Source: a virus
Virus genome (UHGV): UHGV-0203461
Reading direction: 5' to 3' (one strand)
DNA length: 50,795 nucleotides
A program made the position numbers and the translations under genes. This document shows, one piece after another, positions 3,911-23,152 of the stretch. Under the pieces are notes generated by a model that saw only the letters and a list, made by a program, of their open reading frames with translations, was not told where the DNA came from and did not search any database. Positions within the stretch are counted from its first letter, which is position 1. Each line of letters opens with the position of its first letter.

Positions 3911-4439
3911 TGCTACTTCTATTTCTTTTTTAGATAGAGTAGACTTTTCCCTTCACATGTACTCCATCAACATTAATTCGCCCCTGCGTAATTTACTTTC
4001 TACCTCTTGTCGCTCCATTTATGTCACTTCCTTAATTCGTCTAACTTAAATTAATAATAGGAGCTTTTTAGAACAAAAACTATAGGTAATTTTTACCAAA
4101 TATTCTACTGTTTTAGTTTGTTTTCTTAGAAGAAAAATAACTTTCATATCTATAAAATTATTCAACTTTCAAACTATCCTGTTGAATAATAACTAATTCT
4201 ATTGTATTATTTTAGTTGTAGAATAAAACTAAATCGGCAAAACTAGAGAAATTTAGTGGCATAAATATATATGAACTAAGAATTGTAAAATGAGTTATAA
4301 GTTATATCATCCAGTTATCAAAAACATATACTCTTTTTGTTTTTGTGAAAGTTTTTTAGGTGGCTAATAATATATATACTTAGAGATAAAATAAAATATA
4401 TTTCTAATATTCATAGTTTTATTTTTTCTCAAAATGCGA

Positions 4440-4595
4440 TATAATAAAGATGTAAATTCGTATCAAAAACAAAAAAAGAAACTACAATCTATTAGCCTAG
4501 AGTGAAGTTTCATTAACTAAATATTAATGTCGTTTTTTATTAAACTTGATTTTTACATCAAGCTCAAAGTCACTCCTGCCAGAGTGGCTTTTTAC
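4440..4595 (+). ncRNA. putative antisense antitoxin sRNA of type I TA locus 1 (boundaries approximate)
   Basis: TATAAT -10 box at 4440-4445. The transcript would run antisense into the 3' half of the toxin ORF and stop at the hairpin CACTCCTGCCAGAGTG plus T-run at 4572-4595. The architecture is mirrored at locus 2. Confidence 0.35.
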
Positions 4596-4667
4596 TTTTC
4601 TGGAAATAATATATGTAATAAAGCTAGCTGTTAAACTAGCTAACACTCCTAGTAAAAATTCGCTCAT
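4524..4667 (-). CDS. type I toxin, small membrane peptide, 47 aa (MSEFLLGVLASLTASFITYIISRKVKSHSGRSDFELDVKIKFNKKRH)
   Basis: Absent from the ORF track because it is under 60 aa. RBS GGAAGGAGGTGG. Hydrophobic N-terminal helix with a charged C-tail. Upstream promoter TTGATA-N15-TGTTATAAT at 4758-4784 on the - strand. Paralogous to the peptide at 21445-21606. Confidence 0.6.
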   Translation of the reverse strand: MSEFLLGVLASLTASFITYIISRKVKSHSGRSDFELDVKIKFNKKRH

Positions 4668-4926
4668 TTCTCCACCTCCTTCCTTTTAAGGGATGGAATG
4701 TAGAAAATGAAGCTCCACTCTTAGATTGTAGTTCCACAAGATTATTCTTGCATTTTAATTATAACATAATTTTACAATTATCAAATATCTATTCTTCATA
4801 TTTTTTATTTATACAATATATTCTATATTGCAATAAAAAACATTGTTTTAAATATATATATACATAGGTATATACTAAATATGTTAAACTTAATTATAGA
4901 AAATATAAAATGAAAGGAATAAAAAT

Positions 4927-16521: not shown

Positions 16522-18864
16522 CTAAACTATTCCCTCAGCAGATACAACCATGGCATCATTCAGTTTCTCAGTTAAGACATTTACTATGCCGTCGACATCT
16601 GCCTCACTATTTATGTTGTTTGTATTGTTCATATCAATTTTAATGTTGACTCCTGTAAATCGATTTATTACCTCCTGCTCTGCAATATCTCTAAGATATT
16701 TTAAATCTTCTTGACTTTTATCCATTGTTTTAGCCATTTTTGCAGTATTTCCTGCGGTGTCTTTTGCTCCTTTGGCTGCATCATTGAGAGGAGAATTTAA
16801 TCCTGCTGAGCCTATTCCTTCACCAAGTCCGTATTTTTTATCCCAAAGGTCATCTAATCCTAATTTTTTCTTTGCATCTTCTGCTATTTTACTGATATCA
16901 AAAGTATCTTTCAATTTGTTTTGTAATTGATGTCCTACGTCATATCCTTTTATAAATTCTGACTTTAAATTTTTGTACTCTACTAATTCTGGTTTCCATG
17001 CTTTAGGCTCAGGCGGTTTTTGAATGGGTTTAAATGTTGTTTTTGTACCAATTACAGTATTTACTTTTTGAAATTCTTTCATTTGTGGTAAATCAATTCC
17101 TGGAATTTTATTAATCTGTTGTACTAACCAATTCAATCCTTTTACAGCTATATTAACAGCTTTTATAATACCATTTGCTAGATTGGTAGCAAATTTATCA
17201 AAAGCTTTGTCTAAATTAACACCTGCCTTGAGTCCTGCGTTAGCCATATCAATAAAAAAACATTGTACTGCATATAAACCAGTTCTAAAAGCATTTGCTA
17301 TTCCAACTACACAAATATTTATCGCATTTACTATCCCTGAAATTACGTTATAAACGACTGCACATAACCAATACCAAGCTCCAACTGCAAGACTTATTAC
17401 ACTTATGCTTGTTCCTGCAAAATGATTATACACAGCTACCAATATAAATACAGCAGATATTACTGCAATTATACCTAAAACTACCCACGTTAGTGGACAT
17501 GCATATAATGCCGCATTTAAACCATATTGTGCTATAATTTGTCTCCATGTTGCTCCTGTGGCTAGGTCATGCATAATGGCTGTTTGAGCTAGTTGAAAAT
17601 CAAACCATTTTTGAGATAATAATGCAATGGAATTTGCAATTGCTAGTCCTAGTACTGCTGTTTTGTATAATGTTAATGCTCCTACAATCCCCAAAATTAC
17701 AGGAGATATTATACTCCAATTTTGTGCAAATATATTAGCAAGGTTTAATGCTTGTGTTATTATCCAGCCTAGTGCTTGTGAAATTAAACTTATCCCAACA
17801 ATCATTGTGTTTGAAAAACTTTGAAAAGCTGGGCTCCCTAATATACTTATAATTCCATTAAAAATGTTATAAGCAACATTTCCAAGTACATACAAAGAGT
17901 TTATAAAATTATCTATAAAGGTTCGAAATCCCTTACTAGACATAGACTGTTCAATTTTTTTCTGTATAACACCAAATATCATGATTGCATTATTTTTAAT
18001 TGAAGTCCAAATTTGAGAAAATGTGTAAGGCATTTTTTCAAACTCTGCATTGGTCTGCTCTGCTGCTGCAAGTAATGAGTTTTTTACAATATCTGCTGTT
18101 AACATTCCCTCTGATGCCATTCCTCTTATTTTTCCTATGTCCACGTCCAAATAATCTGCAATCGATTGGATGATGTTAGGTGCTGACTCAAACACAGCAT
18201 TCAGTTCCTCACCTCTTAATACGCCAGAACTCAACCCTTGGGTTAGCTGTAACAATGCCGAGTTCATTTCCTCAGTACTTGCGCCTGCTATTACAAATTT
18301 TTTGTTTAATTGCTCTGCAAAACCTACAATTTCTTTTGTACTGCTAAACGCCTTTCCTGCGTTCATGCCTATACGACTCACTATTTGTGCAGTATCTAAG
18401 TAAGATGCTCTTGACCTTTCAGCTGATTGAAATATCATTTTATTAAGTCCAGCATCTGATTGTTGCCCATCATTTATCATGCCAAGTCTCGCATTAGTAC
18501 TTGTCATCTGGTCGCTTAAATTTCCTAGACCTCCTAATGTTCTTATACCTAAATAAGTTGCTGCTAGCTTCTTTGCACTTCCAACTAATCTATCTGTAGA
18601 ACTTGCACCCTTATTTATATCCTCATTAAGTTTTCGCTGTTGATTATCTGATTCTCTTATTTGTCGTTCTAATCTATCAAATCCAGCTTCTGCTCTTGCT
18701 AGTTCTTCTCTAGCTGTTCTAATACTATTAGCATCTATAGCATTACTAGATGTTCTTTGTAATTGCTCGAATGAACTCAGTACTATATTCATAGCATTAG
18801 TCATATGCCGAAATGCAGGTGTCATTCCGTCGAAAATTCGGATAGATGTCTGTATCGTTGCCAT
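16522..18864 (-). CDS. tail tape measure protein
   Basis: 780 aa. Coiled-coil N-terminus, central hydrophobic TM-like block, Gly-rich C-terminus. Position after the tail chaperones. Confidence 0.85.
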
Positions 18865-18933: not shown

Positions 18934-19704
18934 TTATAAATTTAGTAATTCTTTCTTCTTAGTATTAAATTCTTCATCTGTTATTGCTCCTAAGTCTAAC
19001 AATTCTTTTAATCCCTTTACTTGTTGTATTGCATCATTAGAATTATTTTGTATATTAACAGCTTCATTATCCTTTACAATTATTGCTAAAACAGATAATA
19101 TTTCTTGTGCAGAAGAATATGCCATTTTGTAAATTGAAGAATTACTTTTAGTTCTTAATTGTATCAGATTTACATAAACATTAGGATTACTTAAATTATT
19201 TAATGTTATTTTTATCTTAAGACTATCTATGAAAGCTTTTGTTGTTCTTTTAGCTGTTACTCCTCCAACAACAGCACCTACTCCTCCAAATAAAGCTCCC
19301 CCTGCTAAAGCTCTTCCTATCCCTCCTTTAGTCACAGTTTCGCCATTTTCTAGAAGTTCATATTCTATAACATCACTGTAATTATAAACATTTAAATTCA
19401 CTTTTTCTCTATTAAACCCATTTAAAACAATAAATTTCTTATTATTATCATCAAATTCCATAAATTTTAATATTTTTTTTGTAGGATTAAAATTTTTAAG
19501 CTCTTTTTCTTTATCATCTTTTGATTCAATAGCCTTCTCGACCTCTAATTTAGTTGGTAACCCACGATATAAAGTATTTCCTGGAGTAAAGGTGGCAACT
19601 GCATATTTCTTAAAACACTCTTTACACAACCATCCATCAGCTATTTTTTGTTTTCCTTTTTCTCCACAAATACAACAATTATCTTTACTTCCAAACAATC
19701 CCAT
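18934..19704 (-). CDS. zinc-ribbon (DUF4428-like) / glycine-zipper / SHOCT-domain protein; moron
   Basis: 256 aa. N-terminal CCICG...CKEC, a central GRALAGGALFGGVGAVVGGVTA glycine zipper, and a C-terminal SHOCT motif (LKELLDLGAITDEEFNTKKKELL). Confidence 0.5.
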   Translation of the reverse strand: MGLFGSKDNCCICGEKGKQKIADGWLCKECFKKYAVATFTPGNTLYRGLPTKLEVEKAIESKDDKEKELKNFNPTKKILKFMEFDDNNKKFIVLNGFNREKVNLNVYNYSDVIEYELLENGETVTKGGIGRALAGGALFGGVGAVVGGVTAKRTTKAFIDSLKIKITLNNLSNPNVYVNLIQLRTKSNSSIYKMAYSSAQEILSVLAIIVKDNEAVNIQNNSNDAIQQVKGLKELLDLGAITDEEFNTKKKELLNL

Positions 19705-19783
19705 AATATTACCCCCTACGCAATTTTATAAGATTATTATACTATATAAGTAAAATTTTTACATTATAATCACATCCTTTCAA

Positions 19784-19819
19784 TAAAAAAACACCTACTT
19801 TTTAAGTAAGTGTTTTTCA
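19784..19819. terminator. hairpin AAACACCTACTT-TTTTA-AAGTAAGTGTTT
   Basis: Same motif family as the hairpins at 18897, 21229 and 28486. Lies between the antirepressor and the SHOCT gene. Confidence 0.4.
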
Positions 19820-19982
19820 TTTATATAATTAATTTCTTATTTATACTTTGATTGTTTACAATATATATCTACTATTTGTTTGAAAACATAAAAGTTCTCT
19901 TTATCTTCTTGTATATTTTTTAGGCGAGAAATAAAACGTTCTTTTTCCTCACTACATACATCATTTAATAAGTTATTTTACA

Positions 19983-20804
19983 TTACATTGCCTGCTTATA
20001 TACAACATGATAATTTTTCTTCTCACCTTGTATCTTAGCAGGTCTATTATTTTCCTCTATCCAATTTCTTATTTTATCTATTACACTTTGTGAATACTTT
20101 GTTGTAGTACCATTCCAATTATCCTTATTTGCTAAAACTATAAGTTTTTCTTCTTCTTTAATATCTAATTTCTTAATAATCTCACAAACTGCCACAAAAG
20201 CAGGTTTATTAGTTTTAGAGTAAATATTTAACTTGGTTGCAATTTGTTTTGTATCAAAGAAATGTTCTTTTTCTTCAATCTCCAAAGGCAACTCTATTCC
20301 TGCCTTTTTATAGATAGTCTTTGCTGTAAGTAACTTTGCTTTTTCATCTATTCCAGCACCATTTAGAAATGGAGTCAAAATTTCTATTGTTTTATTAACT
20401 GTATCTAGACTTTCTATTTCATTTGCCTTGTCTCGTAGTACTTGAGGGTTAGCATTGTTAGTTATGTATGCACCAGTTTGTCGAATAGCTGGTAAAACTT
20501 CTTTTGTAACCCAATTCTTAAAATTTTTAGCTGTCTCTAACTTGCTTCCAAATATCAGAGAATAAAGTCCACTCTCATTTATTAATGCAGTTTGAGTTTT
20601 GACCATGTTCCCATTTTGGGAATGTGCTATCATTTCAAATATTTTATCATCATCATCAACATGACTTGAAACAGCTTTACTAGGGTTAGCATAACCTAAT
20701 GTCTCTGCTACATCCTTACCAACAAACCAAATTTCATTATCTATATCTATAGTTCTTATCTCTCCAAAATCTTCATTTTTAAATATTTGTAAGTTATTCA
20801 TCAT
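19983..20804 (-). CDS. phage antirepressor (Bro-N N-terminal domain, KilAC C-terminal domain)
   Basis: 273 aa. N-terminus NNLQIFKNEDFGEIRTIDIDNEIWFVGKDVAETLGY (Bro-N), KilAC-like C-terminus. Confidence 0.75.
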   Translation of the reverse strand: MMNNLQIFKNEDFGEIRTIDIDNEIWFVGKDVAETLGYANPSKAVSSHVDDDDKIFEMIAHSQNGNMVKTQTALINESGLYSLIFGSKLETAKNFKNWVTKEVLPAIRQTGAYITNNANPQVLRDKANEIESLDTVNKTIEILTPFLNGAGIDEKAKLLTAKTIYKKAGIELPLEIEEKEHFFDTKQIATKLNIYSKTNKPAFVAVCEIIKKLDIKEEEKLIVLANKDNWNGTTTKYSQSVIDKIRNWIEENNRPAKIQGEKKNYHVVYKQAM

Positions 20805-20890
20805 ACATACTCCTCCTAAATTTAATTTGAAAGAAGTTTCTCTATATGATAAAATATTTCATATAGAAGATTACTTCTTTGTTGGAAATA

Positions 20891-20928
20891 GAGCATTCAA
20901 ACTTTGGTCGGGGAGAATGCTCTATTTT
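20891..20928. terminator. 11-bp perfect inverted repeat ATAGAGCATTC-N16-GAATGCTCTAT followed by TTTTTGTTATTTTT on the + strand
   Basis: Perfect dyad between the RHH gene and the antirepressor. May be an attenuator/terminator or a protein-binding site. Confidence 0.35.
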
Positions 20929-20930
20929 TG

Positions 20931-21101
20931 TTATTTTTCTAAAAGTAAATGGATTCCCTGTCTTATAGCCTCTGCTTTTGTAAGGTTATTTTTTTTACAG
21001 TATTCATCTAATTTTTCATTAGTTTCATCATCTACTCTAACCTTAATATCATTAGTTTTAGGGCTTCCTACAACAGGTCTTCCTATTTTTTTAGGACTCA
21101 T
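20931..21101 (-). CDS. CopG/Arc-type ribbon-helix-helix protein, 56 aa (MSPKKIGRPVVGSPKTNDIKVRVDDETNEKLDEYCKKNNLTKAEAIRQGIHLLLEK)
   Basis: Absent from the ORF track because it is under 60 aa. RBS GAGGTG 6 nt upstream. Classic RHH beta-strand/helix pattern. Immediately upstream of the antirepressor. Confidence 0.55.
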   Translation of the reverse strand: MSPKKIGRPVVGSPKTNDIKVRVDDETNEKLDEYCKKNNLTKAEAIRQGIHLLLEK

Positions 21102-21112
21102 GTTATCACCTC

Positions 21113-21162
21113 ACTTTTGAGTTCCATAATTAAATTATATAGTTTTGGAACTCAAAAGTCAA
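21113..21162 (-). promoter_or_regulatory. consensus sigma-A promoter TTGACT-N17-TATAAT (- strand) overlapped by a 14-bp perfect inverted repeat ACTTTTGAGTTCCA-N19-TGGAACTCAAAAGT
   Basis: On the + strand, AGTCAA at 21157-21162 and ATTATA at 21134-21139 are spaced 17 bp apart. The palindrome arms are at 21113-21126 and 21146-21159, covering the -35 box and the transcription start. Confidence 0.5.
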
Positions 21163-21228
21163 TAACTTATTCCAATTTTTTCTAATTATTTTACTCAACC
21201 GACCATTTTGAGCAAATTTGAGCAAAAC

Positions 21229-21257
21229 AAAAGCACTTACATGTTGGTAAGTGCTTT
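21229..21257. terminator. hairpin AAAGCACTTAC-ATGTTG-GTAAGTGCTTT (11-bp perfect stem)
   Basis: Same motif family. Preceded by the direct repeat TTGAGCAAA x2. Confidence 0.45.
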
Positions 21258-21373
21258 CTTATTTACAATTAAATTTATTCATCTAGTTAGATTCATCATT
21301 ATTTTGTATAAAAAATTTCATCTTTTTATTGACTATAAAAAATATTATAGGCAATATTTTTTCTAATTTGTGG

Positions 21374-21525
21374 TATAATAAAAACAAGAAGAACTACAAT
21401 CTATTTAGCGGTAGAGTGAAGTTCATAATTTTAAAAAATATAAATTATTTAAATTTGCGGAACTTTATTTTAAAACCAAGTTCCCAGCCACTTTTACTCT
21501 TGCCACGAGTAGAGTGGCTTTTTAC
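21374..21525 (+). ncRNA. putative antisense antitoxin sRNA of type I TA locus 2 (boundaries approximate)
   Basis: Extended -10 box TGgTATAAT at 21371-21379. Conserved leader AACTACAATCTATTTAGCGGTAGAGTGAAGTT. Terminator hairpin plus T-run at 21487-21529 inside the toxin ORF. Confidence 0.35.
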
Positions 21526-21606
21526 GTTTTTGATACATCTACAAACGATATATCCAATTAAACTAGCTATCAAGCTAGCTAATATACTAAGTAAAAAATT
21601 GTCCAT
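21445..21606 (-). CDS. type I toxin, small membrane peptide, 53 aa (MDNFLLSILASLIASLIGYIVCRCIKNVKSHSTRGKSKSGWELGFKIKFRKFK)
   Basis: Absent from the ORF track. RBS GGAGGTGG. Paralog of the 47-aa peptide at 4524-4667 (shared xEFLL..LASL.AS.I.YI..R.VKSHS pattern). Extended -10 box TGTTATAAT on the - strand at 21696-21704. Confidence 0.6.
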   Translation of the reverse strand: MDNFLLSILASLIASLIGYIVCRCIKNVKSHSTRGKSKSGWELGFKIKFRKFK

Positions 21607-21926
21607 ACTTCCCACCTCCTTTCATTAGGAAGTAGGTTTTATCCCAGTATGAACTCCACTCTATAAATTGTAGATTACATCTTCTTGCTACAATTATTAT
21701 AACATATAATTCTTACATATTTTACCTATATTTTATCTTCTTCTACTTCTTCTAGCTTCTTTAGCAGTCTTTTTTTCTTCTTTTATTTCTTCTTCTACTT
21801 TAATATCTATAGAAGCAGCAACAAATGCCCTCTCGAAGTCTGGTAAATCTGTATATTCATGTGGTTTCCATTTGAATTTATGAAGGCAATAATGAGCTAC
21901 ACTAGCATCATAATCGCCTCCTTCAA

Positions 21927-22367
21927 TTAGTTTTTTGCTTCTTCTACTTTATCCTCAAAAGTCCTATCAAAACCATTCACCTCTCCTACCTCACTTGAAA
22001 GGTCTGTATATTCACCAGGAGTTAACATTGTTGTTAATAGCTCCTCTGCCCCCATTACACCATAACTATTTTGAAGTTCTGCATCATGTAAATCTGGAAA
22101 TACTACAGTTTCTACACACAGTTTCAAAGTATAAGTATTAAAATCTGTTTCACTAGTGTATTGCCCTGTTGCTTTCCCTTTTTTATTTAGTACAGGTACT
22201 CTTATAGTTGAATCTTTTCTTAATTGTCTATCTCTATCTGAATCTATTGCTTTAAGTTCCCATTCGATTGCTTTTCCATCTTCTCCTATAAACCTTTCAC
22301 TTGCCACATACTTTCTATTCTCTACTTTTATTGCATTTTGACTTAAAAAAGCGTTTAAATCTCCCAT
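21927..22367 (-). CDS. tail assembly chaperone, downstream member of an XkdN-like pair
   Basis: 146 aa, between the tube and tape measure genes. Confidence 0.4.
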   Translation of the reverse strand: MGDLNAFLSQNAIKVENRKYVASERFIGEDGKAIEWELKAIDSDRDRQLRKDSTIRVPVLNKKGKATGQYTSETDFNTYTLKLCVETVVFPDLHDAELQNSYGVMGAEELLTTMLTPGEYTDLSSEVGEVNGFDRTFEDKVEEAKN

Positions 22368-22681: not shown

Positions 22682-23152
22682 TTACTCCATACCATTTGCT
22701 ATATTAAATTTCTCAACTAATTTCCAATTCTCAAAAGTAAAATCCATATCTTCATCTAAATACTCCCCATCAGCATCAAATTTAGCAATTATGCCTGAGT
22801 CCATATTGCAATCTTCCAGTATTATAGTTTGACGACCCACTGAACTTGTTGGGTCTTCATTGGTAATTTGTATATCGAAGTAAATATCCTCACCAGTTTC
22901 TTTATACTCATACAACAATTCTCTAAATATAGAGGTATTATAATAAAATGTTGCATTTCCTGAATATTTACTTCCTGTTGATTTATTTCCTTTTGTAGTA
23001 CTACCTAATATAGGTATCTCACTCTTATTCTTTTCCATTTTAGCTTCTAAGTTAATAGCTTGCATAAAATTATATCTTTTACCTTTTATAGTTACAAAAC
23101 ACTCTGCCTTAGATGCACTTATTGTATCTCTTGCTTTTATTTGTTGTGCCAT
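22682..23152 (-). CDS. tail tube protein (XkdM-like)
   Basis: 156 aa, directly downstream of the sheath gene. Confidence 0.7.
   Translation of the reverse strand: MAQQIKARDTISASKAECFVTIKGKRYNFMQAINLEAKMEKNKSEIPILGSTTKGNKSTGSKYSGNATFYYNTSIFRELLYEYKETGEDIYFDIQITNEDPTSSVGRQTIILEDCNMDSGIIAKFDADGEYLDEDMDFTFENWKLVEKFNIANGME

Follow-up and report, generated by a model that had tools for sequence, protein, structure and literature searches.

A second module of an already characterised Clostridioides difficile type I toxin-antitoxin family in the tail gene cluster of a phiC2/CDMH1-like phage

The closest described relatives of the element considered here are two toxin-antitoxin (TA) modules of type I, CD0956.2-RCd10 and CD2907.1-RCd9, of the Clostridioides difficile strain 630 prophages phiCD630-1 and phiCD630-2 (PMC5961336, PMC7699646), in which the toxin mRNA has an 83-nt 5' untranslated region (UTR) and the 3' end of each RNA lies opposite the start site of its partner; in the published modules AGGAGG precedes the ATG by 7-8 nt. 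With the strain 630 alleles, induction of the membrane-associated toxin arrests growth and the antisense RNA rescues the cells in cis or in trans; the half-life of the toxin mRNA is ~35 min and that of RCd9 and RCd10 13 min, and toxin mRNA and antitoxin form a full duplex that is cleaved in vitro by RNase III. Any one of the phiCD630-1 modules lifts plasmid retention from 1% to 22-64%, deletion of all four toxin genes lowers the retention of phiCD630-1 upon forced excision from >90% to <10%, RCd10 supplied in trans fails to rescue the toxicity of CD0977.1, and toxin homologues are found in all available C. difficile phage genomes as well as on plasmids of C. difficile and P. sordellii (Peltier et al. 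2020, PMC7699646). Here we examine the 50,795 nucleotides of UHGV virus genome UHGV-0203461 (the window, numbered from its first letter), a C. difficile temperate myophage of the phiC2/CDMH1 kind, and in it a unit of ~340 bp at 21368-21710, called locus 2, which a preliminary description had taken for a paralogue of another TA module of the same genome, locus 1.

Locus 2 is, with high confidence, a complete module of the CD0956.2-RCd10/CD2907.1-RCd9 type that would work as an addiction module. It is a genuine second copy, correctly observed, but the family to which it belongs is already characterised in C. difficile prophages. The anatomy of its sequence, its place in the family, its positional orthology and the conservation of its structures are matters of observation, and its parts are the following.

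21371-21379, plus strand: antitoxin promoter with the extended -10 element TGgTATAAT, recognised from the sequence, 7 nt upstream of the position that matches the published RCd10 5' end.
21386-21523, plus strand: short antitoxin RNA of the RCd10/RCd9 type, ~138-143 nt, placed by alignment to published RCd10 and by its fold.
21391-21424, plus strand: antitoxin 5' stem-loop, from the minimum free energy (MFE) fold, kept with covariation in 18 modules.
21486-21523, plus strand: the antitoxin's intrinsic terminator (a stem at 21486-21518 and a U-run), from a terminator scan, the fold and covariation.
21704-21696, minus strand: toxin promoter with the extended -10 element TGTTATAAT, recognised from the sequence.
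21386-21689, minus strand: predicted toxin mRNA, ~304 nt, beginning at its own start site and ending opposite that of the antitoxin.
21615-21620, minus strand: Shine-Dalgarno (SD) sequence AGGAGG, 8 nt before the toxin ATG.
21445-21606, minus strand: toxin open reading frame (ORF) of 53 amino acids (aa), with ATG at 21606 and TAA at 21445-21447.

That the system is of type I is borne out by the NCBIfam equivalog model NF047374 (CD_typeI_toxin, for the CD0956.2/CD0977.1/CD2517.1 group; curated cut-off 60 bits), which matches both the 53-aa peptide (78.8 bits) and the 47-aa peptide of locus 1 (82.2 bits) over their full length, while Pfam searches with the same two peptides returned sub-threshold noise only. 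In the cluster of the 53-aa peptide, one member bears the name type I toxin-antitoxin system toxin. The index of an assembly collection lists the exact peptide in 2912 blocks, and the 25 contigs read from it are C. difficile assemblies. In all eight places compared it stands directly after a Phage_TAC_5 gene and before variable cargo, and in six of the eight the retrieved stretch also includes a tape measure gene further on. Two of the eight (L004 and L005) match the strain 630 primer JP660, designed for the CD0956.2-RCd10 amplicon, with zero mismatches, and in these a CRISPR array lies next door, as in phiCD630-1. Primer JP663, likewise a strain 630 design, matches the window at 21370-21397 with one mismatch, and primer JP659 has no match in the window or in loci L001-L009.

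The antisense RNA that the preliminary description had deduced has a mapped counterpart: published RCd10, whose ends were determined by rapid amplification of cDNA ends (RACE), aligns to 21386-21528 with 123 of 134 nucleotides identical, and its first nucleotide falls on 21386, exactly the predicted start site. The published sequence stands in Supplementary Fig. 9b of Peltier et al. 2020 (PMC7699646) and was available as machine-read PDF text, which leaves some uncertainty in the count of ~11 substitutions and one 6-8-nt indel (antitoxin/3' UTR region) that separate the window antitoxin from RCd10. At ~92% identity locus 2 is thus an allele and not the same sequence, and the idea that its 53-aa peptide is identical to CD0956.2 was dropped, the RCd10 alignment reaching only ~92%. 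Locus 2 shares with CD0956.2-RCd10 and CD2907.1-RCd9 the toxin family, the 53-aa length, the convergent, fully overlapping layout with the terminator inside the ORF, the 83-nt 5' UTR, the antitoxin start nucleotide and the slot after the tail assembly chaperone gene; in phiCD630-1, CD0956.2-RCd10 likewise stands between this gene and the tape measure gene. Unlike these modules, it has no adjacent CRISPR array, it lacks the tandem short-toxin module of CD0956.3-RCd14 type that the strain 630 slot contains, and its neighbouring cargo consists of RHH, Bro-N and DUF4428/SHOCT genes.

Reading from ATG 21606 to the TAA reproduces the quoted 53-aa peptide, MDNFLLSILASLIASLIGYIVCRCIKNVKSHSTRGKSKSGWELGFKIKFRKFK. 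A mechanical ORF list starts the gene at GTG 21615 and gives it 56 aa, but this codon lies within the AGGAGG (21620-21615), so that ATG 21606 is the credible start; the phiMMP03 record annotates the toxin with the same implausible 56-aa GTG start. Residues 4-22 form a hydrophobic helix (Kyte-Doolittle 19-residue maximum 2.42), and the C-terminal 29 residues make up a Lys/Arg-rich tail with 10 K+R versus 1 D+E; the combination of hydrophobic N-terminus and basic tail, a trait of C. difficile type I toxins, is present in both peptides of the window. Opposite the two toxin genes run ORFs at 21329-21628 (plus strand, 99 aa) and 4546-4689 (plus strand, 47 aa), which look like antisense-strand artefacts rather than genes.

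With a toxin start site near 21689 the predicted 5' UTR measures 83 nt, and the predicted dimensions can be set beside those published from RACE for CD0956.2/RCd10: 83 against 83 nt for the 5' UTR, ~304 against 298 nt for the mRNA and ~138 against 134 nt for the antitoxin. The antitoxin promoter includes TGGTATA, which is similar to the SigB -10 element reported for C. difficile modules. The antitoxin RNA is fully complementary to the toxin 3' UTR together with the final 26 codons and the stop codon (21445-21523), and its predicted fold (-34.1 kcal/mol, z = -4.8) contains elements that recur in an alignment of 18 modules, namely the two window copies and 16 others of 67-88% identity from phages and Clostridioides plasmids. 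Within the 5' stem-loop the column pair 34/55 is CG in 10 modules and UA in seven, with G-U pairs on the antitoxin strand, and within the G+C-rich terminator hairpin the pair 124/158 is GC in 11 and AU in seven. The antisense terminator inside the toxin ORF, as previously claimed, is recovered both by the terminator scan and in the fold (hairpin 21486-21518, U-run to 21523). The further claim of extended -10 promoters on both strands holds for both strands of locus 2 and has to be relaxed for locus 1, the antitoxin promoter of which is a non-canonical TGcgaTATAAT (4435-4445).

Locus 1 itself has the following parts.

4452-4766, minus strand: paralogous module of the CD0977.1-RCd11 type (alignment, profile match).
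4524-4667, minus strand: toxin ORF, 47 aa.
4766-4758, minus strand: toxin promoter TGTTATAAT.
4440-4445, plus strand: antitoxin -10 element, within the TGcgaTATAAT named above.
4566-4591, plus strand: antitoxin terminator.

The exact 47-aa peptide appears by name in a UniRef cluster represented by Q183X5_CLOD6, a protein of strain 630; the strain 630 primer JP482 (CD0977.1-RCd11 amplicon) matches 4061-4080 with one mismatch, and its partner JP481 finds a loose match only, at 4847-4886 with four substitutions. Taken together, these matches identify locus 1 as a CD0977.1-RCd11-type module. When 4400-4800 and 21330-21730 are aligned with MAFFT, 77% of the columns are identical, and in comparison with 200 dinucleotide-preserving shuffles the left non-coding flank (78% identity, z = 8.5), the coding sequence (76%, z = 21.8) and the right non-coding flank (81%, z = 8.7) all stand far above expectation; the similarity is thus not confined to AT-rich tracts. 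In the 150 nt outside either end of the unit it drops to background (z ~0). The two loci are therefore paralogous and collinear, as had been proposed, with sharp unit ends close to the limits first drawn and an identity of 76-81%; the proposed similarity of the non-coding parts is real, and the figure of ~70% put on it was somewhat low, given flanks of 78% and 81%. The toxins have indeed diverged, the two peptides being 55% identical and 47 versus 53 aa long, and the antitoxin leader of locus 1 exceeds that of locus 2 by 22 nt. Promoter, leader, SD, ORF, terminator and terminal inverted repeat follow one another alike in locus 2 and in locus 1, the window's representative of the CD0977.1-RCd11 and CD2889-RCd12 modules published by Peltier et al. 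2020. A six-frame phmmer/hmmsearch scan of the window for a third toxin, in particular for short variants of the CD0956.3/CD0904.1 type, returned only the two known loci.

Upstream of the locus 1 antitoxin and on the same strand lies a full-length, sub-threshold match to the c-di-GMP-I riboswitch family RF01051 (4226-4311, plus strand; 18 bits versus a gathering threshold of 35), and an Rfam search at an E-value threshold found nothing comparable at locus 2. In strain 630, a c-di-GMP-I riboswitch (cdi1_4 or cdi1_5) and a second promoter lie upstream of RCd11 at this position.

The published stabilisation of plasmids and prophage is the ground on which an addiction (post-segregational) function is assigned to locus 2; the transfer of the strain 630 results to the window allele, ~92% identical, is inferred from sequence. 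By this reading the minus strand would give rise to a toxin mRNA that is stable, ~300 nt long and led by an 83-nt 5' UTR and that encodes a 53-aa one-helix membrane peptide able to halt growth, and the plus strand to a convergent antisense RNA of ~140 nt with its own promoter and with a terminator inside the toxin ORF. As long as the phage genome is present, the short-lived antitoxin would be continually renewed and would pair with the toxin mRNA, so that toxin synthesis would be blocked and the duplex laid open to RNases. Upon loss of the element the antitoxin would decay first, residual toxin mRNA would be translated and cured cells would be penalised. The toxin mRNA might moreover be inert by itself, by virtue of a predicted 5'/3' helix, a ribosome-binding site hairpin and pairing of the start codon with the 5' UTR. 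No cross-neutralisation would be expected between the two modules of the window, in which exact antitoxin-toxin complementarity extends over 138-146 nt in cognate combinations and over at most 14-15 nt in non-cognate ones. The short non-cognate stretches fit the published failure of RCd10 to rescue CD0977.1 toxicity, a cross-complementation known in this one direction only. The suggestion that the two copies may be non-cross-reacting addiction modules thus agrees with the behaviour of their homologues, which stabilise plasmids and phiCD630-1 and of which RCd10 does not rescue CD0977.1 toxicity (PMC7699646).

Outside C. difficile the resemblances are of architecture. In txpA/RatA and bsrG/SR4 of Bacillus subtilis, as at locus 2, a convergent antisense RNA covers the 3' end of the mRNA of a small membrane toxin, this mRNA sequesters its ribosome-binding site and the modules reside in prophage-like elements; however, there is no sequence homology to locus 2 and no Pfam family at cut-off, and the literature says the same. 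The hok/Sok system of plasmid R1 combines a stable toxin mRNA with a labile antisense RNA and post-segregational killing, as the C. difficile modules do, and its 5'/3' closure and sequestered ribosome-binding site are also predicted for the locus 2 toxin mRNA, by analogy only, since the lineages are unrelated; with respect to membership in that system, no part of the window has an Rfam match at the gathering threshold, and Pfam gave no Hok match. The target of Sok is the translation-initiation region at the 5' side of mok/hok; the locus 2 antitoxin covers the 3' end of the toxin mRNA.

The surroundings of locus 2, assigned by Pfam scans of the window's own ORFs and a terminator scan, are these.

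22682-23152, minus strand: tail tube gene (Pfam).
21927-22367, minus strand: XkdN-like tail assembly chaperone gene, Phage_TAC_5 (Pfam).
21229-21258, both strands: bidirectional terminator hairpin between the TA module and the RHH/Bro-N genes (terminator scan, 11-12-bp stem).
20931-21101, minus strand: RHH protein gene (Pfam).
19983-20804, minus strand: Bro-N protein gene (Pfam).
18934-19704, minus strand: DUF4428/SHOCT protein gene (Pfam).
16522-18864, minus strand: tape measure gene (Pfam).

Along the minus strand the order is thus tail tube, chaperone, TA module, terminator, RHH, Bro-N, DUF4428/SHOCT and tape measure, and the module, flanked by the chaperone and tape measure genes, does lie inside the tail gene cluster as first described. 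Between chaperone and tape measure extends a variable slot for accessory genes (18934-21260), of which the TA module forms the fixed edge. In other prophages with an identical toxin the same slot holds DUF4352 proteins, or a CRISPR array and a second module-like repeat, as in prophage locus L004:

4669-4704 and 4895-5264 (coordinates of L004): CRISPR array and second module-like (short-toxin) repeat, same slot.

Within the window the RHH/Bro-N genes are preceded on the minus strand by a strong sigma-70-like promoter (21162-21134; TTGACT, 17-nt spacer, TATAAT; 11 of 12 matches), which overlaps a hairpin-prone segment (21110-21162) where Rfam yields weak microRNA-model noise only; the segment 21103-21176 may be an operator of the RHH protein. 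In its locus 2 region the window matches CDMH1, phiC2, phiMMP01 and phiMMP03 at 99.5-99.7% identity; the region of locus 1 is 100% identical to several phages, including phiC2, phiMMP02, phiCDHM19 and phiCD508, and 98-99% identical to CDMH1 and phiCD27.

The ~340-bp unit recurs at an identity of at least ~70% in 45 phage records and 36 Clostridioides plasmids, and the cassette occupies unrelated positions, near RepB in phiSemix9P1, near a polymerase gene in phiMMP04, and on plasmids. The 4119-bp Clostridioides sp. plasmid pESS17301e (NZ_CP067357.1) carries a complete module that is 71.5% identical to the window copy, which fits a role in plasmid addiction; its entry in the PLSDB table lists just two annotated features, neither of them the toxin. 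In phiCD119 and phiCDHM19 the module sits in the same slot as in the window and its promoter and leader ends are 94-98% identical to those of the window, but the centre with SD, ORF and 3' UTR is another allele. Such mosaics suggest that the cassette is exchanged by recombination at the conserved inverted-repeat ends. That these two phages have no toxin was ruled out: the phiCDHM19 toxin has a GTG start, and in the phiCD119 copy one base is missing from an A-run, which throws the C-terminus out of frame, possibly a pseudogene or a sequencing error.

What goes beyond the searchable published text concerns the fold of the toxin mRNA. An imperfect terminal inverted repeat of ~60 nt, which comprises promoter and leader (the -10 element, CAAGAAGA, CTACAAT(C/T)TA and TAGAGTG(A/G)AGTTCAT), marks the borders of the module. 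Consequently, both RNAs begin with nearly the same ~40-nt leader, and the 5' and 3' ends of the toxin mRNA are complementary to each other. The two arms of the resulting closing helix were located from the inverted repeats, the MFE fold, the RNAalifold consensus and pair counts.

21643-21686, minus strand: 5' arm of the closing helix.
21386-21424, minus strand: 3' arm of the closing helix, the reverse complement of the antitoxin 5' leader.

In the predicted fold of the locus 2 toxin mRNA (-98.1 kcal/mol, z = -7.9) a long helix closes the molecule end to end, and the locus 1 toxin mRNA folds alike (-87.4 kcal/mol, z = -6.95). In the MFE fold the toxin SD is paired with an upstream anti-SD (CCUACUUCCU), so that the ribosome-binding site is sequestered. 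The RNAalifold consensus of the 18 modules contains both the closing helix and a helix that joins the 5' UTR to the AUG region. Over 16 closing pairs, 96.1% of the cells are paired and 21 cells in five pairs are changed on both sides; none of 500 shuffles reaches the observed values, and registers slid along the arms are at most 55% paired. Where cells of the closing helix depart from Watson-Crick pairing on the toxin strand, 23 are G-U and four A-C. As a separate observation, the 5' UTR segment GUUCAUAC pairs in the consensus fold with the start-codon region GUAUGGAC (~21601-21642, minus strand; alignment columns 48-56/102-112); this helix shows covariation, its column pair 50/110 being UA in eight modules, UG in five and CG in five; if real, the helix would mask translation initiation a second time.

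By the fold-back reading the antitoxin, which carries nearly the same leader and thus competes for the 3' arm of the toxin mRNA, would act by strand displacement and refolding of the toxin mRNA and not by covering the ribosome-binding site, and the conserved ends may serve as recombination points at which toxin/antitoxin centres pass between phages, as in the phiCD119 and phiCDHM19 mosaics. The CD0977.1 mRNA has been described as 'tightly folded', with only a fraction of it binding the antitoxin (Peltier et al. 2020, PMC7699646), which fits a fold-back. The 5'/3' closing helix is not described in the searchable published text, outside which, in the supplement, the Mfold figures of the CD0977.1 mRNA are placed. 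We regard the helix as a modest mechanistic lead and not as a new system, and we hold only tentatively, at somewhat less than even confidence, that the family as a whole combines a fold-back lock with strand displacement by the antitoxin and with ends that act as recombination points for the swapping of centres.

Several considerations weigh against our reading of locus 2 and of its mRNA. The activity of the window allele is assumed from its ~92% identity to strain 630 RCd10, and the start sites of locus 2 are inferred from promoter spacing and from the alignment to the published sequence. No Rfam family covers the module RNAs, either at the gathering threshold in the whole window or at an E-value threshold at both loci. 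The antitoxin, presumed to block translation, overlaps the toxin mRNA at its 3' end only. The strain 630 module has a CRISPR array, and the window contains no C. difficile CRISPR repeat at up to three mismatches, so that the CRISPR association of that module does not apply here. With respect to the closing helix, the excess of G-U over A-C amounts to roughly seven versus two independent column events, and since the leaders are homologous, concerted evolution could mimic pairing. Indeed, the 5'/3' complementarity could be nothing but a by-product of inverted homologous promoter and leader segments, kept alike by recombination or shared constraints, with no RNA structure behind it. The nearly identical ~40-nt leaders of the two RNAs would be expected on that account, the antitoxin leader forms a conserved hairpin of its own, and the phiCD119 and phiCDHM19 modules, with flanks 94-98% identical around a diverged centre, suggest recombination at the ends. 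However, the MFE fold and the RNAalifold consensus both pick the long-range helix, the 23 G-U versus four A-C cells fall on the toxin strand, and the reported 'tightly folded' CD0977.1 mRNA is only partly accessible to the antitoxin (PMC7699646); we therefore judge an origin as mere by-product to be unlikely, though far from negligible.

The function of the module could also be other than addiction. It could be mainly a device of defence or exclusion (abortive infection, superinfection exclusion) with prophage retention as a secondary effect: an infecting phage would shut down host transcription, the antitoxin would decay, and the toxin would kill the cell or exclude the competitor. This would be in keeping with the variable accessory region that the module shares with a Bro-N anti-repressor and an RHH protein and with the CRISPR array at the same site in strain 630-like prophages, and abortive infection and a CRISPR link are raised as possibilities in the literature. 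Yet the only functional data for the family concern the stabilising of plasmids and the maintenance of the prophage, the literature examined describes no phage-resistance phenotype, and the same cassette on a 4.1-kb plasmid is consistent with addiction, so that a primary role in defence appears rather improbable. Far more remote is a late-expressed lysis or membrane accessory protein, holin-like or belonging to the tail cluster, next to which the antisense features would be incidental. The 53-aa peptide is, to be sure, a small one-helix membrane protein encoded on the same strand as the tail genes, and type I toxins are often likened to holins. Its gene, however, has a separate promoter and a structured leader of 83 nt; on the antisense side, promoter, 5' hairpin and terminator are kept in 18 diverged modules; the cassette occurs at unrelated positions (phiSemix9P1, phiMMP04, plasmids); and the peptide scores above the cut-off of the type I toxin equivalog model NF047374. 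A holin or lysis identity, hardly credible on this evidence, was therefore rejected.

Taken together, we argue that locus 2 is best understood as an addiction module of a family whose toxicity, RNA antitoxin, role in prophage and plasmid maintenance, lack of cross-talk and ubiquity in C. difficile phages have all been published previously. For annotation, the value lies in the finding that a phiC2/CDMH1-like phage has two non-identical addiction modules of an experimentally characterised C. difficile type I family, the genes of which are labelled 'hypothetical protein' or left unannotated in most phage records. The biological addition is small, and the sole lead for new experiments is the covariation-supported 5'/3' helix of the toxin mRNA, which might explain both why this mRNA is 'tightly folded' and how translation is controlled by an antitoxin that covers only the 3' end.

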